The notes beneath the pieces were generated by a model. It saw only the letters and a list, made by a program, of their open reading frames with translations. It did not search any database and was not told the DNA's origin. A DNA stretch of 64,000 nucleotides from Lingula anatina (taxonomy: Eukaryota; Animalia; Brachiopoda). Shown here one piece after another: positions 1,626 to 33,982 of this stretch. Numbering within the stretch: position 1 is the stretch's first letter; the number at the start of each line of letters is the position of its first letter. Position numbers and translations under genes: made by a program. The stretch lies in the NCBI GenBank assembly GCA_051362555.1, contig CM120645.1, positions 23,340,934 to 23,404,933 of the forward strand. Reading direction: 5' to 3'.

Positions 1626-4600
1626 TCACAGCGTTTTAAAGAACAATGCTTCAGCAATCTTGCGCGGCGGAGGACCGGTCATGTTGGCTGGAAGGGCACC
1701 AGGGCCGTTTCTTTCCGTATTTCGTGACCTTTTCAACTTATCATAGTACTTATCACGGATGATAGAAAGACAGTCTCTGTCTGATGTAATGCATCCTGCA
1801 TGGAAAGACTTGGCAACCTCCTGAATTATCCCGAATAACCCACTATTCCAGACCTCAATGGCACGATAGAGGGCGTTGTTCGGCGACTGTTTGTAGACGG
1901 CGAGTTGTCTAGCATAGTCTCTGAAATCCGTCTTCTCTTTTTCGGTAATCAAGCTTTCAACACAAAGGCGATGGACGAGATCTTCCAAATTAAAGGGGCA
2001 CAACTCCACCACTTGAGGCCTTGGTTTCCACTTCAAAAAGGCCTTTATAAAGGTCCACATTGATCTGCTAGACTCATCTGAAAATTCATCAAGTGTGCAT
2101 AGGCAACTGATACAGATTTTATATAAACAAATAGACTGCTTACGAAATAGCTAAAAAAGAAATAACAAAATGAATTCAAAAAGTTCATATCATTTATCAC
2201 CTGTAAAAGAGACAGCCAATATAAACTCAAGTGAATTTTAATGTTCAACAAGAAGGTATTTCAATCAAATTTGCAGATAAAAGTCCCTGTGCGCCATGAA
2301 CTGCATATGTATTCTCACGATTAGAATAGAATGACTGCATTCAAAACCAAAATAGTTGATCCGCGTACTAACAGATCCGAGGATCAAATATGGCCGATTC
2401 ACTATAAAGCTTACCCCTGTCAGTCCGCAGATCAACTTCTTCTGAATGCGGCCAATGACTATAATCAGACCAACTTTATGCTACCATTATACATTCAAAC
2501 ATACAGTGTGTCTAAGAGACCATACGCGGATACTATCGTACTAACTTGGGATCGCACTATCTCCGACGGGATTCTCGCTTATCTGCACTTAACTTAGGCG
2601 GCTTAGATGTCTGTCACGCCTGCTGAGGCTGATAGGGGGGTAACATACTATCGTTTAGTAGCTTTAGCGGGCGTCCCAGACGTCAAAGCCGCTTGGGCTG
2701 AACGCAATTTAGCGAGGGACCCCGTGGGGATGGACCGATGGGAACCCAGTTTAAGGCAACATTACCATTCTTTTGCTGGGTACTCTCGCTGACCGGACGG
2801 CGCATTCCTAAAGTAACTGCCTCGTTAACTCCACGACTTTGTTCACTATCACCTCGAAGGAGGTTCTCTTTGGTGGCACGGCCTTGCTTGTTCTTACCAC
2901 CTAGAAAGCAAATAATCGTGTTTTTTTTTCCGCAAAACCTAAGACCCTTATAGTTCACGTCCCTGTCGCATTTTGTGACTGTGCAAGAACTGTAATATTG
3001 AACTCAAACATAAAACTATATTGACCTCCGCCAGGAATTTAATTTTGGGCCTTCGTTTGTTAATATACAGACAAAAAGCTACTGAGGGAAATTTGATGCA
3101 TATTTTTTTACCCGGGCCATTAATGGTCTTGCATATATACTCGAATCAATTAGATTTTGGTGCCAATCCGTTAATTGATTAAACAATCAATTTTGATTAA
3201 TGAATTAATTAATGACGAGAAATGAGCTGCCTTATTACATGTTAACTCATTCTCTTCATACTGTTCAGTCCACAGATACACAATATTTTTTCTAACAAAA
3301 ACACCAGTTGAGATTTGCTCTAACCTGGTTCGCCAAATGTGCCCTCTAGTGTGGTAGATTTCGTTTCAAAAGTATTGCTGTCCACTTGTTTTTCACGTTG
3401 TTTATCGTCAACAGCAAGACCTGATGTTGCTTTTCGGGTCACTTCAGTCTGCAATCTTGCCCTTACTGGTGGTGTCCCATTCGATCCCGTCTTTATTGGT
3501 GGTGTCCCACTCAGTCCCGTCTTTACTCGTGGTGTCCCATTCGGTTCTGCCTTAGCTGGTTGTGTCCCAGTCGATTCTGTACTAAATGGTTGTGTCCCAC
3601 TCAGTCCCGTATTTACTCGTGGTGTCTCAGTCGGTTCTGCCTTAGCTGGTTGTGTCCCAGTCAATTCTGTACTAAATGGTGATGTCCCACTCAGTCCCGT
3701 CTTTACTCGTGGTGTCCCAGTCGGTTCTGCTATAGCTGGTTGTGTCCCACTCGATTCTGTCCTAACTGGTGGTATCCTAGTCGGTTCTGTCTTAGCTGGT
3801 TGTGTTCCAGTCGATTCTGTACTAAATGGTTGTGTCCCATTCAGTCCCGTCTTTACTCGTGGTGTCCCAGTCGGTTCTGCCTTAGCTGGTTGTGTCCCAG
3901 TCAATTCTGTACTAAATGGTTGTGTTCCACTCAGTCCCGTCTTTACTCGTGGTGTCCCAGTCGGTTCTGTCTTAGCTGGTTGTGTCCCAGTCGATTCTGT
4001 CCTAACTGGTGGTATCCTAGTCGGTTCTGTCTTAGCTGGTTGTGTCCTAGTCAATTCTGTACTAAATGGTGATGTCCCACTCAGTCCCGTATTAACTCGT
4101 GGTGTCCCCGTCGGTTCTGTCTTTACTGATGGTGTCCCAGTCAGTCCCGTCTTTGTTGATGGTGTTCTAATGTGTCCTGTCTTTACTGATGGTGCTCCAG
4201 TCAGTCCCGTCTTTGTTGATGGTGTTCTAATGTGTCCTGTCTTTACTGATGGTGTCCCTGTCAGTCCCGTCTTTGTTGATGGTGTTCTAATGTGTCCTGT
4301 CTTTACTGGTGGTGTTCCAGTCAGTCCCGTCTTTGTTGAGGGTGTTCTAATGTGTCCCGTCTTTACTGATGGTGTCCCAGTATAATTGCCTCGTCTCACT
4401 TGTTTTGTTGGTGACTTCTTCCAATTCTGAATGCTTAGAGATTCTTCTAATTCAGACCAGGGAACATATGATCCGCTGTCGAAGAAACGACACTCCCTTA
4501 AGGCAGCTTCGGACTTAAAACTTCCGACGAGTTGGTGAATTTTGTCTGAAAGAAAAAAGGGCTCAGTTTCTATATATAAACAAAGTTGTATCTTGCTGAC

Positions 4601-7600
4601 TGTAGTATCCTTGGAAGACTAAGGCCGTTTCGAATTAAACGCTTGCTTGGGAACAGACTGCACGATGGGATGTTAATCAATCATTAGCTCTCTTGTTTAT
4701 CAAAATATTACTAGAAACCTAGGCCCAACATACCTGCAGATGGTCCGTTATATTCAACACCGATGTCTTCTTCAGATATACATGATTGCTGAAAGAAAAA
4801 ATCACAACAACTAGACTTACATCCATGATCAAAAATCACTTTAACCTTACATGTTTTGCAATTGATTGTTTCTTAATAATTGTTAAAAATTGTTTTATTC
4901 ATCGACAAAGAAGACTGCTTTAAGTAGAACTGTTTTCTACCTTTAAGGAGCTTCTCTTTTCTGTAGATTTACACGTTGTAAACTTACCTTGTTTTCTGAG
5001 ACTACATGCTGAGTTCGTATGTGTTCCTGGTATTTTCCTGCAGTGACCCACGAGCAACAGTGCTCACAAAATACGGGGGTCTTGGGGCACTGGAACCGTT
5101 TGTGATGTCGAATGTCATGTCTGCAATAGAGGTGAACAGGTCTTCTTCAATGCCTTAATGCAAAAATGTTGATGTATGCAGTGTACATGAGAACTGATCA
5201 TGGGACTTTCAAAAGGTAAGGGGGGTACAGCTTCGTGCCAATAAATAACTACCTTTCAGAACACAACATAAACTTAACTTGGATCAACACATATTTCTTA
5301 GAAGCATCAGATTTTTGAGAAGCAAGTGCAGTCAACGTACCTTTCCACTCTGCTACTGCACGCTGGGCACGTGGTATACCTGGCAGAGCAAAGGGGCTCG
5401 TGGTTCTTGATACTCTTCCTCAGAATCGTCTCCCCACAGATGCAGTGGTACGAGGCATACTCACACCTCTCCACGTGCTCCACCAGCTCCCAGCGATGAA
5501 GGAGATCATGGGGACAGCCCAGAGACTTGTACGGACACGTGGCCGTGGCAAACTTGCACACGGAGAGGTGTCTCTCCAACTGGCTGGGTAGGACCAGATC
5601 CTTGCATCCCGGGTTGGTGCAGACTACGGGGACGAAATCAGGACACTGCTGGCTGGCTTTGAAGGGCAGGTCATTCTCTTTGACTGGCTTGGCTTTGAAA
5701 AGCGACGTGATCCACTTCACCAAGCTCTTTTCTGCTTTACTCTCTCGTCTATTGCTCACTGGTGTCTGGTGCTGTGTTTTTAACGGGCATGTTTTGATAT
5801 GGTCACGGAGAGCTCCTCTGGGTCCACTCTGGCTACACTGAGGGTGAGGGCATGATATCTGCACGTGATCGCAAACACTCTCGTGGATAACCATCTCCCT
5901 GACAGTGCCACTGAACACGCATGGTGAATGAGGGCACGTGACTTTGAGTTCCGCTACCTTGGAGTAGGACGCCATTTCAATGCTTCTGGAAAGTTGGCTG
6001 GCGGCGCCGTGTTTCCTCATGTCGCTGCCTTGAGAAGTGTAATTTTGAAAATGAAGTAGATTTAAGAAGCAAATATGGATTCTTAACAGCATCATTGATT
6101 GCAATATAACAGTATTTATTTGATACCTATTTATCCACCACATCAGAAAAAAAATACTTAAATGTCTCAAGTTTAAAATATTTTTCTATCTTATGAATAA
6201 TGTTTTAACACGCAAACAAAGGATAGAGAGGAGAAAGGCTGAACATTCAGACAAAAAAATGTCTGAATAGGCCAAAGGTCAAAATGGGCGATTTTTCAAA
6301 ATCAGAATACAGACCATAAAGCATTCTTGTATTTGAGTCTTCTTTTAATTATCCTGTTTAAATATTGAAACGTGGCAAGTGACTTTAAGCCAGTTTATCA
6401 TAGAAAACGCACTATATTAAAAAAAGGCTGTTTTTGATTTCAGCAGAATTTCACGTGCTTATAGGTTCATGTATCCAGACAAGGGCACTACAGGACATAA
6501 TCTGATCGTCTTATCAAGCCCAGAATCTCTTACATGTAGGGCCTAAATCAAGTACAGAAATCGGTTCGGCTTTGACAGACAATATTTTACGTTTTTACTG
6601 AGAAAAAAAAACGCCTTGGCGATAAACACGTTCGTCATGCTGGTGCTTGTAATTCCCCGTTTTAACCGCAATAGCTCATCATGGCAGCTTATTCTAATGT
6701 GCAATTTAAGTGCCACAGAGAAATTACACAGTGACAATCAAACGGCTACTCCCCGGAGGTATGATGTAAAACTAAAACACTTTTCACAAAAACTGACCCG
6801 AGCGCACACAAACTGATGAAATACAAATACAATGTCAAATTATCGGTCACAATTTTGTTTATCATACTTACAGATAGCACGTTTCGCCGTGCTTCTCACG
6901 GCTCTTCTGGTCTGTCTCCATAGCAACGGACCTAAGGGACAAAATAACACACCCTTATCGATTCACTTCGACAGTAATATCATTATGACCTAGTTCATGT
7001 ATCAAATTGATTGGGAGAGTTGTGTCCCTAATGCTGGGCGGATTTAGGGTCTTCCAAAAGACGGTCAGATTTTAAAGTTTACATTGATAGGTATCTAATT
7101 TTTTCTGTTGGAAGACGGTCAAAAATAGAGGATATATCAACAAAGATAATTTGGAAGACTGTCAGATAATACACCTGGACCCGCCAATGGTAATGGGCTT
7201 ATTGATAGGTCTATGCTCAAGGTGTACTCTCTATACGTAAAAACCCAAACAATAGTGATATAACACAGGAGTATATGGGGGGGGGGGGGGGGGGGGGCGA
7301 AGGGCAGTTGACATGCATAGATAAGGAGCGCCACCATGCTTCTACCATTGTAGTCTCTCTCCTAAAATTCTGCAAACGTCATACCGTCTTTAATTTCTTA
7401 AATTAAGTCTTGGACATAATAACGATAATAATTCGTTATCATGTCCAAGATTAAGTACAAAACAGACCTCTCTGGAATTAGATGGAATGAAGATAAAAGT
7501 GCCGTCCTTTTGCATTATGGTAGGATTCATGGTTGTCAGTAAAAGGGTGAAAATCTACATCTCGCTGTTTAAAACATACCTGTTTCATGTGACTTAAAAT

Positions 7601-8061
7601 GAAGAGGGGCACAAAGCAACAGGCGTACCTTTACTAGGCTTCCTCAAAAACCATACCAATCTCTGGACAGTACCAGTAGGGTCACGGTAAATGTTGCCTA
7701 GATCAGCCTGAAGTTTTTTCCAGTTTTCTGGAACTTTGCAACGTTCCACTTGAATACTCCTCAGGTTTTTCAGGTTCCTAACGCACAGAGCGTGCTGCAA
7801 CAGGTTCAGGCACAATGGGTTTCCCCAAAAGTCGGGACTCAGGCAGAAGACGACTCTTTTGGCCTGCTCGATGGATGCGTGATTAAACTCGACGACCCAC
7901 CCGCCGGGGACGCAGGCCCCGGAGTGGTTACATGTGAAGCCAAGTTTTTCCAGGACGTCAACGACGGGCGTAATGAGGTAGTCCTCCTCCTCGTGATGGG
8001 CGAAAAACACATGGTGACTGTGTTGCCTTAATCTCGGTGGTTTCACTTTTGGCGTGGGCAT
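1626..8061 (-). CDS. TIR - TRAF-type Zn-finger - repeat linker - CARD-like protein, paralogue 1 (~1013 aa)
   Basis: Exons 8061-7629, 6931-6872, 6028-5341, 5120-4988, 4788-4734, 4545-3325 and 2077-1626; all introns GT-AG, phases consistent, total 3042 nt. TIR motifs HHVFFAH...CVPG...IEQAKRVVFCLSPDF..NPLC. About seven C-x-C..H-x3-C/H fingers. C-terminal LCPFNLEDLVHRL...LITEKEK helical domain. Confidence 0.8.
3465..4380 (-). repeat. Coding minisatellite, 30-nt base unit with 60/120-nt higher-order periods (T/P/G-rich, e.g. TGTQPAKTEP, TGTPSVKT)
   Basis: Direct repeats of ggtgtcccagtc-type units seen directly; encodes most of exon 6 of paralogue 1. Confidence 0.95.
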
Positions 8062-8886
8062 CGTTCTTCCTCTCCCCTACAATGTAAGTGATAGGAAACG
8101 TAATATGTGGCACTGTTGTTTGTCACTCAATATGAGCCTATATAAATTGTCATGTGACAACCCTAAATTCATCCTGTCCTCCCACGGCACCAACGGCAAA
8201 GAAATGTTCCGAATTAAGGTGGCGTTGGGGTCATTTTGATATCCCAAGAAGAAACGAGGTCGGGGACTGGTTCCGAGGAGGATGAGGGTGAGATGGGTGG
8301 GGTGGGGTGGGGATGGAGGGTGTGTGTGTGTGCCTCCTCATAGCTGCCTATAAACCCTGAGTTTTAGAAACACTGCCGTGTCTTGTAACTCAGTGTTCTG
8401 TTCACAGGCATCAATAAGAAGAGAGCATTGGTAGTGCACTTTCACATTCAAATCTTACCCAGCTACTGAACTAATCTTTTTTTGATCATTTAATTAAAGC
8501 TTCAGGTTAGGTTCTAGTAGGGCCTACATAATCGTGAAAGCCGGGACTCTTTGACTTCCCGTGTGTTTGCCAACCAAGATGACAGCCCAACATAATACGC
8601 CCCTCCTCAGCTGATTCATCGGACTGAATATAATCCATCATCAGTCCGGGGGGGGGGGGGGGGAAGGGGGAGAGAGACCCTCTCCCCCTTCCCCCCCCCC
8701 CCCCCTCCCCCACCTCACACAATTTTTTTCAACCACATTAGCCAAAAGTTTAGGAAACAGGGATGGAAGGGTGAGGTGTGTGTGTGTGGGGTGGGGGGTG
8801 ACGGTTATTTTCTTAATGTATAATAAAGTCAGTCATAAAATATTCTGTTAAACTCAAAAGAAAATTTTGGCGAACAGCAACCCCCA

Positions 8887-8898
8887 CACTTTCACTTT
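8887..8898 (-). promoter_or_regulatory. IRF-E/ISRE-like site AAAGTGAAAGTG upstream of paralogue 1 (duplicate at 21038-21049)
   Basis: cactttcacttt on the + strand matches the IRF consensus and is conserved in both duplicated upstream regions. Confidence 0.45.
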
Positions 8899-9267
8899 GC
8901 TAATCCTCCTACTCAGCTGTACCGTAAATGTATATATGCTTCCTGTTAGGCACAAATGTTATCTGCTTTTCTCGGATGAATGTTTAATCTCGAAATTGTT
9001 GGTTAAAGGTTAAATTAAATGGACAATCAGAGCTGGAGATAACGGGACGTGCGGCACAGCGCACTTTTCACTTACGCCTATTGTCTACATAGGATCCTTG
9101 CTAAGGCCAAACGAATTTATAAGTTGATTAACGAGAGATAAGATCTATAGACGAAATGTCGGCCGTTTTTTTAAAATATGTTTAAGAAGCATGGATTTTA
9201 GGTTCAGCCAGTTTTTTTTATGGAGGTGAGGTTGGGAATGGAAATGTCAAATCCACTGATCAGTTAT

Positions 9268-9478
9268 ACCCCCTTTACACTGGACGGCCTCCTTTCTGCG
9301 TCCTCTCTGCGACCATGAAATTTGGCATCGCTGTGGTCTTAATAAGGAAGTACGAGCATTGATTTTGTATCAGAATGAATGCTCAATGATCGGCCAGTTG
9401 TGGGCACGTAAAATATTATAATTCTTTTAACTCTCAAATGGGGCCGTGCTGCTGGACGCCGTCTAGTGTAAAGGGGGC
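9268..9478. mobile_element. MITE (Harbinger-like TIR CCCCCTTTACACTGGACG); related copies at ~26510-26690 and 49626-49843
   Basis: Terminal inverted repeats ccccctttacactggacg ... cgtctagtgtaaaggggg; internal sequence is shared with the other copies. Confidence 0.65.
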
Positions 9479-9670
9479 TTTAGGGTCATCTGAAAACGTA
9501 AGTCCAGTAGCACTAATTGAGTTTTTTTTTTCTGAGATCAGTTACTATGCAAAGTGTATTAACCAAAACAATACCCAGTGCATGTTTTATTTGCATTTAA
9601 ACAAAAGTGCATTTTTTTTCATTTTCTCTAAGTAACGTGGGTCGAGCTCGTTTACCAAATTGTCACACTG

Positions 9671-9910
9671 CAGTGGCGAATTAAGGGGGGGGGAGGGGTC
9701 AGGGGGGTCCTGACCCTCCCCTGCAATTTCTGAAAAAAAAATCACACCAATAGTCCCCTCTTTAAATTAGTGTTTTGACTAGCTGAATCATAGTTCTAAA
9801 CCGTACCGAATGGTACCGTTTACCCTGTAAAAAACCAAAGGGGGGGGGGGGGGTGAGGATCGATTTCGCGTCTGCAGACCCCCCTTCAAATAATCCTGGA
9901 TCCGCCCCTG
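9671..9910. mobile_element. MITE with CAGTGGCG...CGCCCCTG ends (duplicate at ~24455-24700)
   Basis: Imperfect TIRs cagtggcgaatt / ggatccgcccctg with internal G/C tracts, typical of small non-autonomous DNA transposons. Confidence 0.6.
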
Positions 9911-10524
9911 CATTGTCTGGCATCATGTTACATTTTACTTGTCGTCTACTGATAAATCACTGATGAATGAAGTAGATGAAATGTCTGCAAAAACATAATA
10001 TTTTAAATATCTTGATTGTTAAGCAAAATCAGTGTTGACTAATTCAACAAATTTAACTATTTAAAAACCGAACACCTAAATCAAATGTGTACGGGATTTG
10101 CACCGCTTCCTGAGCTTCAAATACTAGAAGGTGATCTGTGACTGGCAGAACACGAGAAACTTCCGTATGCCATCTCTTACCTACCCTCTAATATGTGCAT
10201 TTCATGTACAGTTTCTCTAACGGAACAGTAGAGAAAAGTGTCAGAAATTAACCAGCATATCTGTGAACACAAGTGAAAAATCAATCTGTGCCCTTGGTAA
10301 AGGCCATCTCTTACCCCTTGCATGTCCCGATGTCTGGCGTCTTCTTGTCTAGGCCCGTCACTCACTATGGACAGCCCTTCGATCCCCAGTGTAAATAGTT
10401 TCGATTGTCATTAATAATTTACTGTCTAAATGAGAAACCTCACACTGTCTGGGTGACTTAGTTGACTGTACAGTTATAAATTTGTCAGGTGACGCCGTTT
10501 TATTACATAATTGGTAATCACAGT

Positions 10525-11086
10525 GGGGATTTTTCCTGTTACTAATAATAGATCATGCAAATATAGCCAGGGAATTCCCGTTTGTGAGATTTAACAGAGT
10601 GCGGATTTTCCATGCTGCAGATGTGTGACAAGTGGAGCCAGGTCAAGTGGTACGTATATTGACTGGCAAAGATACATGTATTTTGCTGGGGGGGGGTCAC
10701 AAAGATTTACTTTTTTTATAGAAAATTGCCTGCAGTCTCTTTTTGCTTCTTACACTTTCAAAGATTTTTTCTCATTTGTTCTTTTGAAATTATAAATTAA
10801 AGGTACACTCCATTGGTCTGAAAATTCCCCATATGCTTATTTTTGCCACCTAGAGCACCTTATTAGAACCTTACACCTTAAAAACGATTTAACCCCTTAA
10901 ATACTTCTTTCTGGGTCGTACTTGATGTTGATATTTACATAGGAGCATATAAGGCGATGGTCACTGTTATAATGATTGGCCAACCATTTAAAACTAATTC
11001 AATTAACGGCAGAATCCAAGTTCAGAGAAGGATAGATAAATGAATCACGGGTATCAGAAAATTGTTTATTTCCTCGGGAAAATCCC
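10525..11086. promoter_or_regulatory. Cluster of NF-kB-like sites upstream of paralogue 1
   Basis: GGGGATTTTTCC at 10525-10536, palindromic GGGAATTCCC at 10570-10579, GAAAATTCCCC at 10820-10830 and GGGAAAATCCC at 11076-11086. Confidence 0.6.
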
Positions 11087-13748: not shown

Positions 13749-16700
13749 TTAAAAAAACTTAGTTTTCGAATCCAGGTAAAACAACTTACCAATCGCGAGC
13801 GTCGGGGAACCGGTCCCGCTGGATGGATGGGCACCAGGACCGTTTCCTTTAGCATTTCGTGACCTTTTCAACTTGTAATACTTATCACGGATGATAGAAA
13901 GACATGTACATTCTTTGTCTGACGTAATGCATCCTGCATGGAAAGACTCGGCAACCTCTTGAATTATCCCGAATAACCCACTATTCCAGACCTCAATGGC
14001 ACGATAGAGGGCGTTGTTCGGCGACTGTTTGTAGACGGGCAGTTTACTAGCAAAGTCTCTGAATCCCATCATTTCTTCTCTGCTAATCAAGTATCCACCA
14101 AAAAGGCAATCGACCAGGTCTTCCAAATTAAAGGGGCACAGCTCTTCCACTTGAGCCCATAGTTTCCTCTTGCAAAGGTCTAGAAAGGCGCGAATTGACT
14201 TGTCTGAAAAATTCATTACGTGTACTAAAGTACATGTAACTGAGACAGCTTTTATATAAGCAAATGAATTACTTAATTAATAGATCAAAAGAAAAAATTC
14301 AAAATATTTCATATCATTTATCACATGTGAAAGGGAATCTCGGTGAATTTGAATGTTGAACAAGAAGGAATTAATTTGCAGCTTATAGTTCCTGTACAAG
14401 CCGCGATGAACTACACACACTGGACAATATTCTTACATTGCTTATATTCCGCCTCCTCAGGTTAATAACTTGACGCCTATAACCGTCAGATAATTGCCTG
14501 TATCTTGCCATATTGGAGGAAGACAGTAATGACATTTGCTGTACATGTACAAGACCAGCAGTATAGCGGTTTTATACTCATTAGTCACATCATAAGTAGA
14601 CCAGGCATTATAACTGCCCAAGATCTGCCTACTTTTATTACTCTGATTTAGGGGGTGACACTTCTATTGACCAGTGTATGTATATATGCATTCTGATGAT
14701 TAGAACATTATGACTCATTCGACTAACTTTATATTTACATATCCCATGCAATCGCATATTAATTCAGTGTGTCTAAGACCGTTCTCACAACCAATTGTTT
14801 CGCGGACTAAAGAATCCCGGGATCAAACACGCCCATCCCACTCTAAAGCCTGTGGCATCATCTACAAGTAGACACTGAAAAGATACCCCGCGAGGATTAT
14901 GCGGCAATATTTCAAATGGGTCAACAATATTTAATCCGCGAATCAACTTCGGTTGTTAACATGTCATTATATGGGTCGTTACCATCCTTTTCCTGGGCAT
15001 TTTCGCTGACGGTCCGGCGCCTCCTTAAAGGAACTGCGTTGGCATTTCCACGTCTTTGTGCACCATCATTTTGAGGGAGGTTCTCTTTGGTGGCCAGGCC
15101 ATATAATTTCCCACCATCTAACAAGAGAGAAGAGAAGAAATAATCGTGATTTTTTTTCGCGCAGCCAAAGTAACATCTCTGTTCTAATTTGTAATTATGT
15201 AAAGACTGTAACACTACACCCCGACCTTAGGCCTTTGTTCGTTTGATAGTATACAGCCTAATTCAAAAGGTTACTAACGTAATTCTGATAAAATTTTTCA
15301 GGCCGTGTCGAGAATGGGTTAACTAAATATCAAATAGATTTTGATGGTGACCACTTCTCATTTTATCATGACATCAATCAATTTCAATTGATTGATTAGT
15401 TAATTATGAGAATTAAGGTGTCTTGTTACATCTAAGTTAACTTTCCTGATAGTATTCATTCCACAGATACAATAGGTTTTAATTTCTAACAGAAACATCT
15501 GGTCTAACCTGGTTTGCCAAATGTTCCCTCTAGTTGCTGTGTAGCTGTTTTCGTTTCAGTTGTATTGCTGTCCACGTTCTTTTTAAGCCGTTTATCTTCT
15601 TTTGACCCAATTTTACCTGACTGAGTTGACATAATGTGCCCAGTGTCATCAGTATTTGGCTCGACAGCAAAGTGAAATGTTGCTTTTGGGCTCAATTCGG
15701 GTTGTAACTTCATCGGTCCTCCGCTCACTTGTGAGGTCGATTCCGTCTTTACATGTGGTGTCCCACTCAGTTCTGACAATGCTGACGGTGCACTCTTTGA
15801 ACGGCTTAAACGTTTTTTTAGTTCAGGTGGTGTCGATTCCCTTTTTACTGGTGGTTTCCTAGTCATTTCCGACATTGCTTGGGATGTCCCTCTCAGTCCG
15901 TTCTTAACTGATGATGTCCCAGTCATTTCCGACATTGTTTTCGGTGTCCCAGTCTGTTCCGACATTGCTTGTGCTGTCTCTATCAGACCAGCCATTACTG
16001 GTGATCTTCCAGTCAGTTCCCATATTGTTTTCGGTGTCCCAGTCTGTTCCGACATTGCTTGTGCTGTCTCTATCAGACCCGCCATTACTGGTGGTGTCCC
16101 AGTCTGTTCCCACATTGTTTTCGGTGTCCCAGTCTGTTCCGACATTGCTTGCGGTGTCTCTATCAGACCAGCCATTACTGGTGATGTCCCAGTGAGTTCC
16201 CACATTGTTTTCGGTGTCCAAGTCTGTTCCGACATTGCTTGCTGTGTCACTACCAGTCCGTTCTTACCTGGTGATGTTCCACTCAGTTCAGACATTACTG
16301 ATGATGCCTTGTCCTGTGATCTTGTCTTAACTGGTGATGTTCCACTCAGTTCAGACATAACTGATGATGCCTTGTCCTGTGATCTTGTCTTACCTGGTGA
16401 TGTTCCACTCAGTTCCGACATTACTGATGATGCCTTGTCCTGTGATCTTGTCTTAACTAGTGATGTTCCACTCAGTTCCGACATAACTGATGATGCCTTG
16501 TCCTGTGATCTTGTCTTAACTGGTGATGTTCCACTCAGTTCCGACATTAATGATGATGCCTTGTCCTGTGATCTTGTCTTAACTGGTGATGTTCCACTCA
16601 GTTCCGACATAACTGATGATGCCTTGTCCTGTGATCTTGTCTTACCTGGTGATGTTCCACTCAGTTCCGACATTACTGATGATGCCTTGTCCTGTGATCT

Positions 16701-19700
16701 TGTCTTAACTAGTGATGTTCCACTCAGTTCCGACATAACTGATGATGCCTTGTCCTGTGATCTTGTCTTAACTGGTGATGTTCCACTCAGTTCCGACATT
16801 AATGATGATGCCTTGTCCTGTGATCTTGTCTTAACTGGTGATGTTCCACTCAGTTCCGACATTACTGATGATGCCTTGTCCTGTGATCTTGTCTTAACTA
16901 GTGATGTTCCACTCAGTTCCGACATAACTGATGATGCCTTGTCCTGTGATCTTGTCTTAACTGGTGATGTTCCACTCAGTTCCGACATTAATGATGATGC
17001 CTTGTCCTGTGATCTTGTCTTAACTGGTGATGTTCCACTCAGTTCCGACATTACTGATGATGCCTTGTCCTGTGATCTTGTCTTAACTGGTGGTTTTCCA
17101 CTCGGTCCCATCTTTATAGATGGTGTTCCAATGTACCTTGTCTTTACTGGTGGTGTTCCAGAACAATTGTCTCGTCTCATATGTTTCGTTGGTGGCTTTT
17201 TCTGAGTCTGAATGCTGAGAGATTCTTCCAACTCAGACCAGGGAACATACGATCCGCTGTCCGTGAAACGTCTCACCTTTGTGGCAGGTTCGGACTTACA
17301 GCTTTCGTCGAATTGATGAATTTTGTCTGAAAAGAAAAAGGGATCAGTTTGGCAAATATGCTCGTATAGTACTTACTGTCTGCGGTGTCTTTGTCAGAAT
17401 AGGATCATTTCGAATTTAACGTTTGCTGAAGAACAGACTACACGATTGGTTAATAATTAATAAATAAGTTTCAAGCTTATCAAAATATTATTGCAGCAAA
17501 AACCTTTTTCTACATACCCGTAGACGGTCCTTTATATTGAACATCGGTACCTTCTTCAAATATGCACGATTGCTGAAGTAAAAATCACAACACTTAGACT
17601 CACATCTATGAACAAAAATCATTAAACATTAGATGTTTTGTAATTGATTGTTTCATAATAATTGTTTAATAATTGTTTTATTCATCGACAAAGAAGACTA
17701 GTATGCTTTAAGTAGAACTGTTTTCTACCTTTAAGAAGCTTCTCTTTTCTGTAGATTTACACGTTGTAAACTTACCTTGTTTTCTGAGACTACATGCTGA
17801 GTTCGTATGTGTTCCTGGTATTTTCCGGCAGTGACCCACGAGCAACAGTGTTCGCAAAACACCGGGGTCTTGGGGCACTGGAACCGTTTGTGATGTCGAA
17901 TGTCATGTCTGCAATAGAGGCAAAGACGTCTTCAATGCCTTAATGCAAAAATATTGATGTCAGAAAATATCATGGGACTTTCACAAGGTAAGGGGGGTAC
18001 AATTCGTGTCAATTAATAACCACCTTTCAGAACACAACATAAACTTAACTTGGATCAACACATATTTCTTAGAACCATCAGGTTTTTGAGAACCAAGTGC
18101 AGTCCACGTACCTTTCCACTCTGCTACTGCACGCTGGACATGTGGTATATCTGGCAGGGCAAAGGGGCTCGTGGTTCTTGATACTCTTCCTCAGAATTGT
18201 CTCCCCACAGACGCAGTGGTACGAGGCCCACTCACACCTCTCCACGTGCTCCACCAGCTCCCAGCGATGCAGGAGATTATGGGGACAGCCCAGAGACTTG
18301 TACGGGCACGTGACCGTGGAAAATTTGCACAAGGAGAGGTGTCTCTCCAACTGGCTGGGTAGGACCAGCTCCTTGCATCCTGGGTTGGTGCAGACCACGG
18401 GGACGAAATCAGGACACTGCTGGTTGGCTTGGAAGGGCAGGTCGTTCTCTTTGGCAGGCTTCGCTTTGAAGAGAGACGTGATCCACTTCAACAAGCTCTT
18501 TCCTGCTTTACCATCTCTTCTATTGCTCGTTGGTATCTTGTGCTGTGTTTTCAGCGGGCATGTCTTGATATGTTCACGGAGAGCTCCTCTGGGTCCGCTC
18601 TGGCTACACTGAGGGTGAGGGCATGATATCTGCATGTGATCGCAAACACTTTCGTGGATAACCATCTCCCTGACTGTGCCACTGAATACGCATGGTAGAT
18701 GATGGCACCTGACTTTGAGTTCCGCCACCTTGGAGTAGAACGCCATTTCATTGCTTTTAAAATGTTGGCTGGCGGCGCCATGCTTCCTCATGCCGCTGCC
18801 TTGAGACGTGTAATTTTGAAATGAAGTAGATTTATGAAGCATATGTGCATTCTTAACAGCATCATTGGTTGTAATATAACAGTATTTATTTGATACCTAT
18901 TTATCCAACAAATCAACAAAAATTCACACTTGAAAAATACTTAAATGTCTCAAGTTTAAAATATTTTTCTATCTTATGAATAATATTTAAACACGCAAAC
19001 AAAGGATAGATAAATTCAGACAAAAATATCTATAAAGGTTCCGCCATTTTGGAAGCGGGAGGAGGTTGGGGTCAAAAGGGGCGATTTTTCAAATTCAGAA
19101 AAGAGATCATAAAGCATTCTTGTATTCGAGTCTTCTTTTAATTATCCTGTTTAAAGGGCATTGCAGAATATAATCTGATCAAGCCCAGAATCTCTTACAT
19201 GTAAATCAAGTACAGAAATCGGTTCGGATTTGACAGACGATATTTTAGGTTTTTACTGGGGCAAAAAAACGCCTTGATGATAAACAGGTTCGTCCTGCTG
19301 GTGCTTGTAATTCCCCGTTTTAACCGCCATAGCTCATTATGGTGGCTTATTCTAATGTGCAATTTAAGTGCCACAGAAAAAAAAACTGACCCGAGCATAA
19401 AAAATGATCAAATGCAAATATAAATTATCGGTGACCGCATGGTGCAAACAAAGTTTGTATATCATACTTACAGATAGCACGTTTCACTGTTCTCACGACT
19501 CTTCTGGTCTTTCCCCATAGCAACGAACCTAAGACAAGATATCACACCCTTATGATTCCCTTTGACAGTAATATCACATTTTTGACCTAGTCCATGTGTC
19601 AAATTGATTGGAAGAGTTGTCCCAATGGGCTTATTGTATGTATGGTATTGTATGTATGTAAAAAATGTATGTATGTATGTATAGATAATATAGATAAGGA

Positions 19701-20276
19701 GCGAAGCCATACTTCTACCAATGTAACCCCTTCCCTAGAATCCTGCAAACGTTATACATATACCGTCTTTAATTTCTTAAATTAAGTACAAAACAGACCT
19801 CTGTGGAATAACGATGGAATGAAGATTTAAAGTGCAGAAGAAGTACCTTTACTAGGCTTCGCCAAAAACCGTATTAATCTCTGCAGCGTACTAGGGCCAC
19901 GGTTAATGTTGCCTAGATCAATGCGGTGTTTTTTCCAGTGTTTTGGAACTTTGCAGCCTTTCACTCGAATACTCCTCAGGTTTTTCAGCTTCTTCGCACA
20001 CAGGGCGTGCTGCAGAAGATTCATACACCATGGGTTTCTCCAAAAGTCGGGGCTCAGGCAAAAGACAACCCTTTTGGCCTGCTCGATGGACGCGTAATAA
20101 AACTGGACGACTGGCTTGCCAAGAAAGCAGGCCCCAGAGTGGTTACACGTGAAGCCAAGATTTTTCAGGAAAACAATGAAGGGTGAAATAAGGTGCTCCT
20201 CCTCCTCGTGATGGGCGAAAAACACATGGTGACTGTGTTTCCTTAATTTCGGTGGTTTCACTTTTGGCGTGGACAT
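13749..20276 (-). CDS. TIR - TRAF-type Zn-finger - repeat linker - CARD-like protein, paralogue 2 (~1211 aa)
   Basis: Exons 20276-19847, 19528-19472, 18799-18112, 17908-17776, 17572-17518, 17326-15509 and 14203-13749. Intron phases are identical to paralogue 1 and nucleotide similarity is high. A possible GTAAG donor after 13790 could change the C-terminus. Confidence 0.8.
15870..17095 (-). repeat. Coding tandem repeats: ~13 x 63 nt (KTRSQDKASSVMSELSGTSPV) plus ~4 x 90 nt units
   Basis: Near-identical 63-nt units at ~16270-17095 and 90-nt units at ~15870-16260, seen directly. Confidence 0.95.
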
Positions 20277-24081: not shown

Positions 24082-25586
24082 TAACGGGACGTGCGGCACA
24101 GCGCACCTTTCACTTACGCCTATTATCTAGGATCCTTTCTAAGGCCAAACGAATTAATAAGTTGATTAACGAGAGATAAGATCTATAGACGTGGGCCTAA
24201 TTTATTTATTTATATATTTATTTTTTGTGGAGGTGAGGGTGGGAATGGAAATTTTCAAATCCACTGTTCAGCTTGGGTCATTTGAAGACGTAAGTCCAGT
24301 GGTACTAATTAAGATTTTTTCTGAGATCAGTTACTGCTACGTGTATTAACCAAAACAATATCCAGTGCATGTTTTACTTTCATTTTAAACAAAGTACATT
24401 TTTCATTTTCTCTAAGTAACGTGGGTCGAGTTCGTTTACCAAATTGTCACACTGCAGTGGCGAATTTAGGGGGGTGTCAGGGGGGTCCTGACCCTCCCCT
24501 CCGATTTCTGAAAAAAATCATACCAATGGCCCCCTCTTGAAATTAGAATTATGACTAGCTGAATTATAGTTCTAAACCGTACCGAATGGCACCGTTCACC
24601 CAATAAAAAAACAAAAAGGGGGGGGGGGGGGTGAAGATCGGTTTCGCATCCGCAGACCCCCCCCCCCCCCCCCCTTCAAATAATCCTGGATCCGCCCCTG
24701 CATTGTCTGACATCATGTTACATTTTACTCGTCGTCTACTAATAAATTACTGATTCAGGAAGTAGATGAAATGTCTACAAAAACATAATATTTTAAATAT
24801 CTTGATTGTTAAGCAAAATCAGTGTTGATTAATTCAAGAAATTTAAGTATTTAAACACGTGTACCGAACACCTAAATTAAATGTGTGCGAGATTCGCTCG
24901 GCTTCCGAACTTCAGCTACAAGTAAACTGTGTCTTGCAGAATACGAGAAACCTTCGTAATTAGCCAGAGATATATATACATTGTGTAACATATGATCCTA
25001 CAGCCATATTCTTCACGATTTGTGTCTACAGAAAATTTATATTCACACCAAGAAGTTGTATCTCACCACTTGGCTTGAATATTTCATTAGTAACTTTTAA
25101 GTTAAAACCAGTATATTCTGTCATCATATTAAGACATAGCCTATATTTTTGCTCATTCACAAACTGGCAACACAATTACCAACAAAAGAAACGGTAGGCC
25201 TATTATGCGCCGATTGTATTGTTGTTATTATATTATATATATTGTACAAGGTCATGATAATTTATGATAAATTAAATATATCTGTGAATATGTGTTGAGA
25301 AATTTATCTGTGACCCTGGTAAAGAGTATTTCTTACACCTCGCTTCTTCTGTATGTGTAATATCTCGATGTCTGGCGTCTCCTTGTCTAGGCTTGTCACT
25401 CATTAGGGTCAGCCCTTCGATCACCGTTGGCGTTTATGGATGCAACGAATGAACGTCTTGGTTCGGTTGTCATTAATAATTAGCTATCCAGATGAGAAAC
25501 CTCACACTGTCTGGGTGACTTAGTTGACTATACAGTTATAAACTTGTCAGGTCACGCCGTTTTATTATATGATTGGAAATCACAGT

Positions 25587-26156
25587 GGGGATTTTTCCTG
25601 TTACTAATAATAGATCATGCAAATATAGCCAGGGAATTCCCGTTTGTGAGATTTAACAGACGTGCGGATTTTCCATGCTGCAGATGTGTGACAAGTGGAG
25701 CCAGGTGAAGTGGTACGTATATTGACTGGCAAAGATACATGTATTTTGCTAGGGGGGGGGGGGCACAAAGATTTACTTTTTTTATAGAAAATTGCCTGCA
25801 GTCTGTTTTTGCTTCTTACGCTTTCAAAGATTTTTTCATCATTTTTTCTTTTGAAATTATAAATTAAAGGTACACTCCATTGGTCTGAAAATTCCCCATA
25901 TGTTTATTTTGCCATCTAGAGCGCCTTATTAGAACCTTACATACACCTTAAAAACAATTTGACCCCTTAAATACTTCTTTCTGGAGCGCACTTGATGTTG
26001 ATTTTTACATAGGAGCATACAGGGTGATGGTCGCTGTTATAATGACTGGCCAACCATTTTAAACGAATTCAATTAACGGCGGAATCCAAGTTCAGAGAAG
26101 GATAGATAAATGAAACACGGGTATTAGAAAATTGTTTATTTCCTCGGGAAAATCCC
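25587..26156. promoter_or_regulatory. Duplicated NF-kB-like site cluster upstream of paralogue 2
   Basis: The same four motifs at 25587-25598, 25632-25641, 25887-25897 and 26146-26156. Confidence 0.6.
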
Positions 26157-26893
26157 ATGGAGTTGACTTTAAACGACGTGGCCACATGCAGAAAAAAAAA
26201 GATTTAATCTAATTGAGACAAGTGTCGGAAACCAGTATACGGAATGAGACAGTGGCAGCCAACAGAAAACTTTTAATTGAAGCATATTTTACTTAAATTC
26301 AAATTACAGAACGATCAATTTTTTTTTAATATTTACATTATAAAATATATAAAAATAAAATATTAGGACAAGCAATGAAAAATATAGCTTTAATGCCAAA
26401 TTCAAGTAAATACAATGGCACAATATTTTTCCACTGTAGTAAAAAAAATGCTTGCAGTAAATCACAAGGAGCACCATTCACATGACCCTACAATTATACA
26501 TCTTTTCTGCGTCCTTTTAGCAACCATGAAAACTGGCATCGATGTGGTCGTAGAAAGGAGGCACAAGCATTGTTTTGGTTGCATAATGAATGCTCAATGA
26601 TCAGCCAGTTGTTGGCGGGTAAAGTTTTTACTCTCAAACGGGGCCGTACTACGAAGCGAGAAAGGACGTCATCCAGAGTAAATAAAGGGGGCCTAGGACA
26701 GTACCTGTGCTATACTTCATGAACACAACTGGGGTGAAGAAATCAAGATATGCAGTAAGTGCAAATATCATTTTAAGAATACTGTCTGTTAAAGAGACAG
26801 AATGTCAAAATTACCAACAGACTCACCATATTTATGTCTTAGGATTTTAACCCCTTTGTAAATCACAAACTGTACTTCACTACTACGTCTCCG

Positions 26894-27755: not shown

Positions 27756-30700
27756 TTATTTCAGAAACAAGTACTCTGCCACACCTGGGGGAAGCACCTC
27801 ATCTGCAACTTTTCGAGAGGCTTTTTCATGACATGACTGCTGTGATGAGAAATTTGACGAAAAAGTTAACTGACCGCCATCTTTCCTCTGCTTCTGCCTG
27901 CGCTTGAAAATCACTGCATAACGCTCACACACGTGTTCAAAAAAGGTGATATTTCTATCCAGGTTCCCAGCCTGAAAAGCCTTGATGACATCTTGGACCA
28001 CACCGAATAAATCAGGATTGTGGTACTCTATTGAACGGTACAGGGCTTCGTCCAGTGGGCAGAGCAAGGTTTTGACTTTTTTGGCATGTGTTTCAAACTT
28101 CTTTTTTTCTTTCAAGGTCAGGTAGCTCTTTTCATACAGGTGGTCGATGGTGTCTTTTAAACTGAATGGGCAAAGATTTCCTCGGAAAAGACTTTTAAAT
28201 CCTTGAAACTTTCTTGGGGACTCGACGTGAACTGGTTCTGAAATATAAAATAAATTGTCAGTAATCATGAAATCAAGTAAATATCATTACACTGTACCAG
28301 CAAATACAAAACTGCAGTCTGTGTGAATTTCAATTGTTAAAACACAATAAGTCATCTTGTGGAATAATATACAGCAATGCCTTTCAGAAGATATGATAAA
28401 GGAAGAATTATTGTCTAATGTTAAAAGTACTACAAGAAAAATTCCAAAATTGACTTGAACACCTCACAATCTTTCTACTGAATTTACTTGTGCGAACAAA
28501 CAAAATACCTTTGTTCTTGACAGGGCAGCTCTGACTTCTTGCTTTTGTTTCCTTATTTTTTCTACCAAAAAGTTTCAAGAAGCAATTCTTTGGCCTGGTT
28601 ATGCTGTTTCCTCGCTCCGACCAGGTACAGAGCACATCAGCACCTACTGGGAAATCTGATAAATCCTCGGGACTTACAAGAACAAATTCCTCTTCTTGGT
28701 CGAAACCCTTGTCTCCACTGGACAAATCATGATTAGACTCAGTCTCTTTCCTACAACAAGGGTCTAATTCATTGTAACCATCTGAAGCAGCTGGCAGATG
28801 ATCTGAAACCTCTCGGACATTCTTCGTCACATAGTCATCGCTGGTGTTAAAGCTCCAGCTCTTTTGGTTCTTCATGGCTGACAAAATTTTACGCTTTAAA
28901 ACCATCGCAACTTCACCTTCTGCACAGTTGAAACTTGTGACCTCAGCATGATAATCACTGTCAACTTCACTTTCACCCAAGTCCAACTGACAACTCTTAT
29001 TGTCCATTCTAACTTCACCTATTATTGTGTAGCTTCCACTTTGCCTCCAACTGAGCTCAGTTGCTGAGGTACTACTTTTACTTGCTTGCTCTGATTCAAC
29101 AACTTCCACTGTTAAATTTCCACCATTTGTTTTGCCTTTTATTTTCTCTGGAGAAGTTCTCCCGTATGCATCTCTGACCTGCATAGATAATTTTTTGTCT
29201 AAGTCTGGGGCTTTTATTTCAATTTGATTGGTCTCACTTGCTAAGCCATGCTCGCTGTCTAATATATGAGCCCCTGTCCCAGCTTTACTGCATTTTGTCT
29301 TGGTCCCTGTGGCAGTCTCACCATCACTTCTACTTGTGTCTATAATTGACATGTTGCTGTGTGACCTGGCCCCTGTGAACACTGTGCCATTTGGAAAGCT
29401 TGTCTTGGCCCCAGCCGAAGAAGTCTGTCTTGCTTTCTCAACATGAACGTTGGCCTTGTAGGATGACTCCGGGTCTGGAGCCAGCCGACACTCACCAAAC
29501 TGTGGTTCTGTACTATCTTCTGGTATGGCACCACAGTGTGCCTCGCAGTCCACATCTTGAGGTTCCTTGCCCACCGTTTCTGTGACACCCACACCTCTAA
29601 CACCAAGAACATCTCTCTCACTGTTCTCCCTTCCCTGTGTGTTGCCCTTTGAAATTGTGGCAGAGTTACCAGGAACACCTGGTGCATTTCCGACAGACTT
29701 ACACCCCTCAAATTCTGGCACAAATTTTGAAGAGCCCATCGGGTCACATAGACAGGTACCCTCTTGAAATCCAGCTGCTGTTTCCTCATTAGGGTCCCCT
29801 GACTTGGAGAACTGATGCACATTTTTAGGAACACCCAATATGTTTTTCATTGTGTCATGTGGAATCTTGTTTTTCCCTGCGGAATCTTGACGAAGGTGAT
29901 GAACATTTGACAGGTTTGGATGTGTTGTGAGCTGGACGAGTTCTTCCCACGTGGCATCCTCAGATTCATCTTGAACTTTGCACCCACTGTTAACGACAGG
30001 TGGCTGTATGCACTGCTGTTGATCTGTGGTCCCTGTGCAAATGTAATAGTGGCAAAAACTGTGATGCTTGAAAATCCAAGAATTTTTGTAAAACTATGTT
30101 TACACATTCCGTGGTTTTGAAGCATGCATCCACAAAAACAGAGGGGATAAATTTTTCAATAATAAAAATAGTCTTAAAATACCAATCTTAAATATATTAA
30201 ATATAATAAAGTTATTACATGTTTGTGAGGTTAAATATTCTTCTAAAGAAATTATTTGAATACAATCAACATACTTACAATGATTTTGCTTAGGGGAAAT
30301 AATATTTGCACTGTGAGCAGTGGACGTAGTTATTTCCTGGGTTTCCTGTAGTAGAAATGCTTGGTTAAGAACCAAATTTAAAATCAACAGAGAGTGAGAG
30401 TGAGATATCTAATTATGGGTAAACTAATAATTAATCTGATTTTTACTCAGCACAGGTAACTGGGCATTGGATACATACAAAAATGTGAAATATGCAACTT
30501 GTGAATTTTCCCATTTTAGCATACAGGCATGTCTTGGGGGACATTTAGAACAGCAGGCTAACAGATCCGCAGATCAAATATAGCAACCCACTAAAAAACT
30601 TGCTGCTTTATTCCCAATTAGACACTGAACAGATTCCCTGTGGGAATTATGCAACAAACATTCAAGTCAGTCAGCCATATCTGATCTGCAGATCTGTTAG

Positions 30701-32142
30701 TCCGCTGTACTGAATGGGCACTTGGATGATTTCCAGAACACAAACATAAATCTGCCTACCTTTTCTGTGTTCGTGTCATCATCATAAAGATGTTCCTCTG
30801 CCAGGTGGGACACATACTTTGCCACGGTCAGCAACTGACCACAGTATGGACACAGTGCCAGACGCTGGTGACATTTGTCTCTCCTGTGGTTACCCAGTTC
30901 AAGTCTGAAGTACAAGAAAGATTTACATAATAAACTTATAATGGATTCCAACATTCAAGGACTTAAATTGTCCTGAATAAGACATATTTGATATTTTCTT
31001 CAAGATGAGCAATTTAGACAGATTTTACAATTATGAAATTAAAAAAAAAAAAGTGTGTGTGCGTGTATAAAGTTGGTAAGACTATTTCAACAGTAATGAG
31101 ATGAAGATTAACTGTCTCAACTACATTGTAGCTTTTCCCTTGTGCTTGTTAATGCAAATCATAACCATGAATTTATTTTTTATTTCAGAAGAAACATATG
31201 ACGTAAAACCCTCACCTGTCTACCATCTTCTTACACAGCACACACTTCACATTTCTAGCAGGACAGACAGCCTCGTGATGACGCATAAATTCCAACTTCG
31301 GCACCAAGGCTCCGCATGCGCACTGCACATCTGCACAACTGCACACACGCACATGTTCAACAAGTTCATTACGCCGAAGACGCTCCTGTTTGAAAATGCA
31401 CCCATCAAAAGGACAAGGGAGGGGGGTGAAATGGCAAGAGGTCAGGTGACGTGGTAAGTGGGACTTTTGAACAATTTCCCCACAGTTTGGATTCGGGCAG
31501 AGGGTGGGGGAAAATGTCAAGTTTCTCGTTGTTATCTCATATAAACTGTCACTCAGGCAATCAGAGCTCTTCTCATTATTGTCTATGTTCAAAGCGCTTT
31601 TCGCTATAGACCGTATTGCCATGGCAACAGCCTTGATGTGTTCTGCGATAATACATGGCACCTTCTGAATATGCCTGAACCTTCTCTCATTTCGAATTTT
31701 CCTTGTGCATTTGGGAACCTGTCTAAAACTGGCTCCAGAGACTCTGCACTGAAAGCTGGAACTTTTCGCTTTTACAACGGCAGTTTCTTGCAGATAACAT
31801 CTGTTTCTAGTCCCATTTCCACTGAACGAGGCTGAGAATGGACATTTGTTGACGTGACTGCTCAGATTGTGCCGCTGCACCTGCACTGGGCACCGGACAC
31901 CGGGGCATTTGACCAGCTGGTACGGACACTGCCTCAGGTGAAAACATATCTCCTTGGCCTTACAGGTGTGGGAACAGGGGTGGTTGGCACACCGTACGGG
32001 GGTGTTGGCCCCCTTCTGGTACTGTCTTTGTATGGAATACTTCTCTGCCAGTGCCTGTCTGGCCTTCCTCTGGTACTTGCAGCCTGAAGGCAGGTAATAT
32101 AATATACTGTAAAGATCTGTTCTCTATTCTATTCTATTCTAT

Positions 32143-32193
<51 letters not shown>

Positions 32194-33982
32194 TTAGTTG
32201 TATAACCACTGGGAGTCAAGGGCCACATTGAAATCAATACGAAAAAAAATATCATGTTTGAAAATATGAAAGACTAAGCTCAGCTGCAATACTTACATAG
32301 CACCTTGGCCAAAACCTTCATCCCACCATAGACATTTGAAAGGCATCCCATCCCTCGTCTCCTCCTTATAACTGAAAAGGACAGATGTGATTATTTTTTA
32401 CTGCAATTGCTGTTTGATTTATCAATTACCTGAACCAAATTGGGATTGTGTTATTTCCTTTGGTAGTTAACAGCTGAACTCAAAAAGCCATACACAGACT
32501 TCATTAAATTTTTATAATTTTATAATATTAGAAAAAAGGCTAACTTTTAGATTTTGGTAATGGTACATTTATTAACAATGAGAACTACGCTGCCTTGGTG
32601 GAGATCTGTGCACTCTGAATGCTTTTCAAGTTACCTCCGCCAAGGAGGTTATGTTGTCACCCCTGTTTGTTTGTTTGTTTGTATGTCTGTTTGTCATCAA
32701 CATAACTAAAAAAATTATGGATGAATTTCAATGGAATTTTCAGTGTAGGTCAGAAAAGGGTTAACTTAGAAGTGATTAGTTTTTGGTGGTGATCTGGATC
32801 AATAATCAATCAATATTCAATAATCAAAAATAAAAAACTACGTTATGGATCGATTTTGATGAAATTTTCAGGAACTGTCAGGAGTGGGCCAAGGAACAGA
32901 TGATTGGTTTCTGGTGGTGATCCAGATCAATAATCAATCAAAAATCAATAATGAAAAATAAAAAAAAAACTAAATCATAGAATGAAAATTTAGGGGTGAA
33001 ATGGCATTGGGTGGAGACTTTGCTGCCTTGGCAGAGGTCTGCGCTCTCAGTGCTTTTCTAGTTAAATTTGTAGAACCAGTGCCACAACAGCTATAATCTT
33101 ACTGTTACCATGCACATTATTCCAAGTTTATGAACTTCGTATAATTAGGCTGTGTTCACATGGAAAATCTAATTTCTAAAGATCTAAAAATCTATTTGCG
33201 TTATCTTGTGATCACAGTCTGTGCCCTGAATACCCCGCAGTGTAATTACTGGCAGCGCGGAGAAGTAATTACAGCTTAAAAAGTAATTGGCTCGTGCTGC
33301 CCGTAATTACTCCGTGGGGTATTCAGGGCACAGACTGTGATCACAAGATACCGCAAATAGATTTTTTAGAAAATAGATATTCCATGTGAACGGTCCCTTA
33401 ATCATCAACTTAAAAAAAATTTTTTTGGGAAAATGATTTATATAAAAATGCCAGAAAACACCAACATTTTTGAATTTTTTAAGATTTTCCACATATTAGG
33501 CATCTCTCTCTCTCTCTCTCTTTCTCTTTCTCTCTCTTAAACACTCACTTACATCTTGGGTTAGCCAGACATCTTATCAAAGCCTTCACAGCGCTGGTCA
33601 CATCCTTCCCAGGAAGCACATAGCAGTGCCGTAGCTCCCTTGGTATTCTACAAGGCCTCAACTGAGCACATATCACTCTGTTGGCACCCTTTATATACAG
33701 GACTTGGTCTGTCTGGTAACGACAGTATCCGTCCCCGAGGTACTGAGGACTCAAACAAACCACCGCATGTTTGGCACTGAAAATAGAGTCCGTGCAGAAG
33801 GAAAACCTGTTGGCCCCTGCTCGACACTGACCGGTGCGGACATGCTTGTACCCCAGGGCTGTGAGGATGGAGAGGACACACCGCAGGAAGGATTCTTCCT
33901 CTTCATGGTGAGCAAAGAAGGCGTGGTGGGTGTGTCTTGGTAGTGGTGGGGGTGGCGGCATATCCTGTGAATACGATGCCAT
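27756..33982 (-). CDS. TIR - TRAF-type Zn-finger - linker - CARD-like protein, divergent paralogue 3 (~1196 aa)
   Basis: Exons 33982-33553, 32371-32297, 32083-31216, 30904-30760, 30345-30279, 30032-28509 and 28237-27756, with the same intron phases (1,1,2,0,1,1). Conserved motifs: HHAFFAHHEEEE, VVCLSPQY, ELVEHV..C and LCPF.L.D..D.L...ALYR.IE..N..LFG..Q.V...F.AG. The linker is non-repetitive. Confidence 0.78.
32632..33060 (+). mobile_element. Non-autonomous Helitron/Helentron-like repeat
   Basis: Starts ttacctccgccaaggagg, contains (TTTG)n, and ends with the inverted gccttggcagagg plus a short hairpin and CTAG. Confidence 0.5.
33148..33397. mobile_element. Palindromic MITE (Harbinger-like, TTA flanks)
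   Basis: ggctgtgttcacatggaa ... ttccatgtgaacggtccc, with a long internal inverted repeat (atcttgtgatcacagtctgtgccctgaataccc and its reverse complement). Confidence 0.75.

Follow-up and report, generated by a model that had tools for sequence, protein, structure and literature searches.

Three tandem genes, designated A, B and C, were found on the minus strand of a 64,000-nt window of the Lingula anatina genome (assembly GCA_051362555.1, contig CM120645.1, positions 23,340,934 to 23,404,933 of the forward strand), where they lie within window positions 1626-33982. Each encodes, in one open frame, a TIR domain, seven TRAF-type zinc fingers arranged as 2+5, a low-complexity spacer and a helical end domain of ~110 residues. 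A TIR domain fused to TRAF fingers was not seen in the literature reached, and an exhaustive search of 1.84 billion proteins revealed no relative of the end domain outside Lingula. Tentatively, we favour the reading that the three products are lineage-specific, non-catalytic cytosolic TIR scaffolds of innate-immune signalling, which connect TIR complexes with a binding partner of the end domain; the genes were likely made by exon shuffling. The window is animal DNA with a guanine plus cytosine content of 38%.

Gene models and domain architecture

A first-pass annotation of this DNA had described three intact seven-exon genes with identical intron phases. The genes proved to be intact: all introns are bounded by GT and AG, and none of the models contains an internal stop. 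The exon count had to be revised: A and B have eight coding exons, with intron phases 1,1,2,0,1,1,1, and C has seven, with phases 1,1,2,0,1,1, so that the first six phases are common to all three. It is the 135-nt seventh exon of A and B that is missing from gene C. A micro-exon that follows the TIR exon (60 nt in A, 57 nt in B and 75 nt in C) was located by homology to the RefSeq models P0002 and P0004. Each domain has exons of its own, and phase-1 introns follow the TIR domain and precede the end domain. The features are as follows (window positions).

Gene A, 1626..8061, minus strand: 8 coding exons (8061-7629, 6931-6872, 6028-5341, 5120-4988, 4788-4734, 4545-3325, 2900-2766, 2077-1626), 1058 amino acids; near RefSeq models P0001/P0002
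A exon 1, 7629..8061, minus strand: TIR domain; BB-loop Pro52 retained, Leu87 at the catalytic-Glu position
A micro-exon 2, 6872..6931, minus strand: predicted exon, basic amphipathic segment; 17 of 19 residues match P0002
A exons 3-4, 4988..6028, minus strand: seven TRAF-type zinc fingers (Pfam, pattern), 2+5 with a 55-residue insert
A exon 6, 3325..4545, minus strand: Thr/Gly/Pro-rich spacer, tandem repeats at 3461-4381
A end domain, 1725..2066, minus strand: C-terminal helical domain, orphan
Gene B, 13749..20276, minus strand: 8 coding exons (20276-19847, 19528-19472, 18799-18112, 17908-17776, 17572-17518, 17326-15509, 15117-14983, 14203-13749), 1256 amino acids; without a close database copy
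B exon 1, 19847..20276, minus strand: TIR domain; Leu52 at the BB-loop Pro position, Leu87 at the catalytic-Glu position
B exons 3-4, 17776..18799, minus strand: seven TRAF-type zinc fingers (Pfam, pattern)
B exon 6, 15509..17326, minus strand: spacer, 63-nt unit x13.4 at 16262-17103 plus 30/90-nt repeats
B end domain, 13866..14201, minus strand: C-terminal helical domain; AlphaFold2 model, six helices, predicted local distance difference test (pLDDT) 84
Gene C, 27756..33982, minus strand: 7 coding exons (33982-33553, 32371-32297, 32083-31216, 30904-30760, 30345-30279, 30032-28509, 28237-27756), 1196 amino acids, the length of RefSeq XP_013382032.1; transcribed
C exon 1, 33553..33982, minus strand: TIR domain; Ala55 at the BB-loop Pro position, Gln90 at the catalytic-Glu position
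C exons 3-4, 30760..32083, minus strand: seven TRAF-type zinc fingers (Pfam, pattern), 114-residue insert
C exon 6, 28509..30032, minus strand: Ser/Glu/Thr-rich spacer, non-repetitive
C end domain, 27891..28223, minus strand: C-terminal helical domain; AlphaFold2 model, six helices, pLDDT 79

The predicted N-terminal TIR domain was confirmed in each gene by matches to Pfam TIR_2 (E = 2.5e-7 for A, 3.5e-9 for B and 6.7e-6 for C), the score of gene C (27 bits) being slightly below the 28-bit cut-off. It occupies residues ~14-144 of proteins of 1058-1256 amino acids, and the nearest solved structures in a PDB search were TLR6 (E 1.3e-7), Hydra TRR-2 and TLR1. The BB-loop and catalytic-glutamate positions were read by alignment with TLR6, which carries Glu at the latter. 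The catalytic glutamate of helix C was absent from all three TIR domains, in which Leu, Leu and Gln stand in its place. According to a 2026 preprint (10.64898/2026.04.20.719644), the cyclic ADP-ribose (cADPR) output of animal TIRs, including that of one Lingula TLR, needs this glutamate; the TIRs of A, B and C are therefore, to judge from their residues, most likely non-catalytic. No transmembrane segment was detected in any of the three proteins (maximum 19-residue hydropathy of 1.08-1.32).

The seven fingers, split two and five by a basic insert, were recovered as first described. All seven were found by pattern in each gene, the insert comprising 55 (A), 55 (B) and 114 (C) residues; Pfam scans gave zf-TRAF matches with E values of 1.8e-11 to 3.3e-14, and the nearest solved structures were those of TRAF6, TRAF5 and TRAF4 (E 7.7e-5 to 5e-3). 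There was no RING domain, as judged by the C3HC4 pattern (0 of 3 proteins) and by the RING families in the Pfam scans, and these scans revealed no MATH domain in the exons or in RefSeq P0001-P0004. The hydrophobic moment of the segment encoded by micro-exon 2 was 0.92 in A and 1.10 in B. In a motif scan, TRAF6 (PxExx), PxQxT, pLxIS and RHIM motifs were absent from all three proteins, and a loose TRAF2 pattern was matched 0, 1 and 2 times across A, B and C.

A disordered spacer of 400-600 residues had been proposed. A long low-complexity spacer is present, and its composition suggests disorder, but its length is 485 residues in A, 680 in B and 545 in C, beyond the proposed range in B. Tandem repeats occur in A and B only; the 63-nt coding repeat of the B spacer (13.4 copies, 96% identity) is a recent expansion.

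The end domain had been called conserved and CARD-like. It is conserved (identity of 73/93 between A and B and 33/92 between A and C), and six helices were predicted in the AlphaFold2 models of B and C, which were built from a three-sequence alignment; the size, ~90-110 residues, agrees with that of a CARD or other death fold. The CARD assignment is unproven: no Pfam family was matched and no fold match was significant. CARD chains made up 4 of the 40 and 7 of the 42 Foldseek matches listed, none of them significant, with the RIP2 CARD at the top of the second list, and the ten best named Atlas matches share the CARD family or clan, with scores of 0.80-0.82 that serve as a lead only. These hints lean weakly towards a CARD, and the models suggest that the domain is probably a divergent death fold, which is likewise unproven.

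At the 5' end of gene C, an in-frame stop lies immediately upstream of the start codon. A candidate 5' untranslated exon of this gene ends at 36964 with a GT donor, an AG acceptor lies ahead of 34200, and two CGGAAGT motifs are located near this exon, at about 37070-37086. Upstream of the start codons of A (8062-8076, minus strand) and B (20277-20291, minus strand) there is an AG acceptor followed by an open frame, and P0002 starts eight residues earlier; genes A and B may have a short upstream exon.

Expression, paralogue history and distribution

Four RNA runs were compared with gene C, with 205-316 reads each; the sampling covered ~6 in 100 of every large run, and a splice joint was listed only when it had at least three reads from two starts. 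Spliced reads were obtained at four of the six introns of gene C: 10 at intron 3, six at intron 4, 11 at intron 6 and five at intron 2, which had four more with variant letters. The 3' junction of micro-exon 2 is thereby covered. In run X5 the large coding exons, including the TIR exon, had a depth of 4.5-10.6 per bin on one strand; in run X7 there was almost none. Gene C was transcribed in several runs without a known challenge. At interspersed repeats (9264-9460, 14434-14682 and 32630-33400), many RNA reads that derive from other loci match in part.

Genes A and B are, from their DNA similarity, a recent duplicate pair: positions 1655-11204 match 13790-26262, and the introns are 74-93% identical. 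Gene C, with about 30-36% protein identity to A and B, is the old copy. Between A and B, a rough Nei-Gojobori count with Fisher p values put the ratio of non-synonymous to synonymous substitution (dN/dS) at 0.19-0.20 in the fingers (p 2e-5) and at 0.40 in the TIR domain (p 0.001); the end domain stood at 0.57 (p 0.09) and exon 7 at 1.7 (p 0.36). Purifying selection thus acts on the TIR domain and the fingers. The model P0002 has B-type residues at three N-terminal positions and A-type residues in the rest of its TIR domain, and dS between A and B varies by region from 0.15 to 0.39; together these observations hint at gene conversion or unequal crossing-over between the two copies.

Domain by domain, the window proteins are 92-100% identical to L. 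anatina RefSeq proteins. Copy B lacks a close match in the database (219/240 for the fingers and 72/93 for the end domain against P0001), so the window haplotype differs from that of the RefSeq scaffolds. P0002 and P0004, both unnamed, carry the whole architecture of TIR, fingers and end domain; P0001 lacks the TIR domain, and P0003 lacks the TIR domain and six fingers. P0005 and P0007 have Gag-protease retroelement sequence ahead of a C-type TIR exon that is short by about 33 residues, P0007 being a read-through from the protease sequence into the shortened exon. The retroelement read-through model also omits fingers 1-2, and its arrangement is absent from the window haplotype; one database copy may thus be damaged.

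Word-based searches for longer proteins were positive in 4 of 7,995 candidates for the end domain, in 2 of 3,325 for the TIR domain and in 3 of 155 for the fingers, and all of the positives were 'uncharacterized' L. anatina proteins. These searches were insensitive, as ordinary TRAFs were not returned, and only the end-domain search was exhaustive. The family appears restricted to a single genus, but a similar architecture with more distant domains may exist outside Lingula.

Several other features were observed in the window. A gene for a GNL3/nucleostemin-like GTPase at 37300-43700 (plus strand; E 2e-8 against human GNL3) and gene C seem to be arranged head to head. A p38 MAP kinase gene is located at about 52000-63100 (minus strand; E 1.9e-20 to p38a); it encodes a Toll-signalling kinase and lies ~18 kb from gene C, which is probably a chance neighbourhood. 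A 402-codon open frame at 44757-45962 (minus strand) has no Pfam match; its 97% identity with the beginning of P0007 links the RefSeq scaffold with this locus. Between A and B, a 147-codon open frame at 11155-11595 (plus strand) has no Pfam match and few, divergent reads, and two related repeats at 22459-22878 and 23497-23952 look non-coding.

Proposed function and rival explanations

In the scaffold reading that we favour, the TIR domain would bind to the TIR assemblies that Toll-like receptors or adaptors form, as in the TLR/MyD88 pathway, and the fingers would form a rigid binding arm incapable of ubiquitination. The basic amphipathic micro-exon may touch membranes. The end domain would recruit a downstream partner, which would be a CARD protein if the domain is a death fold; 186-214 CARD hits, possible partners, are given for Lingula in supplementary table 7 of PMC8662601. 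The signalling output would be activating. The BB-loop differences (Pro, Leu and Ala) would give the three copies different TIR partners, and the copies provide a natural comparison of these residues.

A further-reaching proposal, which we regard as unlikely in its entirety, is that one chain folds together three tiers of Toll signalling, a TIR that reads receptor assembly, a captured arm of TRAF fingers and a death-fold family that is new and has diverged too far for present profiles, with the paralogues tuned to different TIR partners by their BB loops. If true, the single-chain fusion would give a lophotrochozoan a path from TIR receptors to CARD effectors that does not depend on MyD88. PMC3308963 describes lophotrochozoans as lacking clear TRIF/TRAM orthologues and proposes their many unclassified TIR proteins for that role. 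The present family is a concrete candidate for such a role, with a testable anatomy and with expression seen for gene C.

The main rival, which we consider somewhat unlikely, is a dampening decoy that enters TIR complexes and, in competition with MyD88 and TRAFs, reduces signalling like mammalian TRAFD1/FLN29. All enzymatic parts (RING and the catalytic glutamate) are missing, as is MATH, the BB-loop proline is replaced in B and C, and the transcription of gene C in runs without a known challenge also fits. There are precedents in TRAFD1, whose N-terminal TRAF-type fingers accompany suppression of TLR4-dependent NF-kB and MAPK activation (PMC4438057), and in oyster TIR-only MyD88-like proteins, proposed as competitors (PMC4346834). 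Against this, the TRAF6-binding motif that TRAFD1 uses was not found, the TRAFD1/XAF1 finger profile PF21366 scored E 0.59-5.9, well short of the cut-off, and a conserved end domain behind a spacer of ~500 residues exceeds the needs of a simple decoy. The first-pass interpretation, a fusion that couples TIR receptors to CARD effectors or else a TRAF decoy, is partly supported; the scaffold or adaptor is favoured over the decoy, and the CARD link is unproven.

Also unlikely is a reading in which the end domain represents a new helical family with no relation to death folds. The protein would then be a sensor or scaffold with another output, for example a guard with TRAF-like bait fingers for microbial TRAF-targeting proteins and the TIR domain as output. 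Against this, the models were derived from only three sequences, the weak hints all point to a CARD, and the fingers are under purifying rather than diversifying selection. The fusion could also be partly an effect of annotation, with the TIR exon separately spliced or skipped and A and B being silent recent duplicates. In its favour, the RNA evidence extended to four introns of gene C, with no joint listed at introns 1 (the TIR junction) and 5 at the sampling given above, and A and B had a depth of 0-0.56 on coding bins with no spliced joints in the four runs. In addition, P0001 and P0003 lack the TIR domain, and P0007 reads through into a shortened TIR exon. Such an effect is nevertheless improbable. 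Exon order and phases are shared by copies that are about 30% identical, the frame is open over every junction, micro-exon 2, which would be useless without exon 1, has a splice joint with the fingers, the TIR exon and the fingers have a similar read depth in gene C, only a small share of every large run was sampled, and A and B have diverged under purifying selection.

Very improbable, finally, is a TIR enzyme that cleaves nicotinamide adenine dinucleotide (NAD) to make a cADPR-type signal, which the end domain would bind like the phage sponge Tad1. Many animal TIRs, one of them from Lingula, produce cADPR (10.64898/2026.04.20.719644), and the end-domain profile matched one Tad1 sequence in the PDB search (E 0.018-0.03). 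The replacement of the glutamate by Leu, Leu and Gln stands against the enzyme. As for Tad1, a profile of 70 relatives gave the three end domains at most 1.9 bits, the profile-profile probability was 1.6-2.2%, with 1 of 40 column shuffles scoring better, no phage match was obtained by tblastn, and PF24729, present in the Pfam library, was unmatched.

Comparison with known systems

The proteins resemble MyD88 and MyD88-like adaptors in having a cytosolic TLR-type TIR domain and possibly a death-fold domain in one chain. In MyD88, however, the death domain is N-terminal and the TIR domain C-terminal, whereas in A-C the TIR domain comes first and seven TRAF fingers and a 500-700-residue spacer lie between. 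MyD88-like proteins with TIR and CARD are reported in placozoans (PMC6321704). With TRAF2-6 the family shares an array of TRAF-type fingers, but the latter proteins have RING and MATH domains and end in a coiled coil and MATH, whereas A-C lack both domains, have the TIR domain in the place of RING and fingers split 2+5 by an insert, and end in a domain that is all-helical in the models. TRAFD1/FLN29 and XAF1 also carry TRAF-type fingers, lack RING and MATH, and continue into a long low-complexity region; they have no TIR domain, and A-C have neither the TRAF6-binding motif nor a match to PF21366.

TRIF/TICAM1 is likewise a long chain with a TIR domain, a TRAF-related module and, at the C-terminus, a module that transmits the signal; its recruitment of TRAFs is through short motifs, and its last element is a RHIM. 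In A-C, by contrast, there is no RHIM or PxQxT, and the fingers are built into the chain. The transmembrane segment and ectodomain that precede the TIR domain in TLR/IL-1R receptors were not found in the exons modelled for A-C, nor was the helix C glutamate of NAD-cleaving TIR enzymes. The family thus falls outside MyD88, the TRAFs, TRAFD1/XAF1, the TLRs and the NAD-cleaving TIRs, and may work like MyD88, TRIF or TRAFD1.

No description of an architecture combining TIR with zf-TRAF was found in the literature reached; Gerdol 2017 (metazoan TIR proteins, ecTIR-DC) and 2018 (Lingula immune genes) may mention one. In cnidarians, molluscs and brachiopods, domain shuffling and tandem duplication have commonly produced new TIR architectures, according to PMC5094078, PMC4346834 and PMC8662601, the last of which gives 102-131 TIR hits for Lingula. 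A, B and C are a real variant of the cytosolic TIR adaptor kind, akin to the lineage-specific TIR proteins of marine invertebrates.

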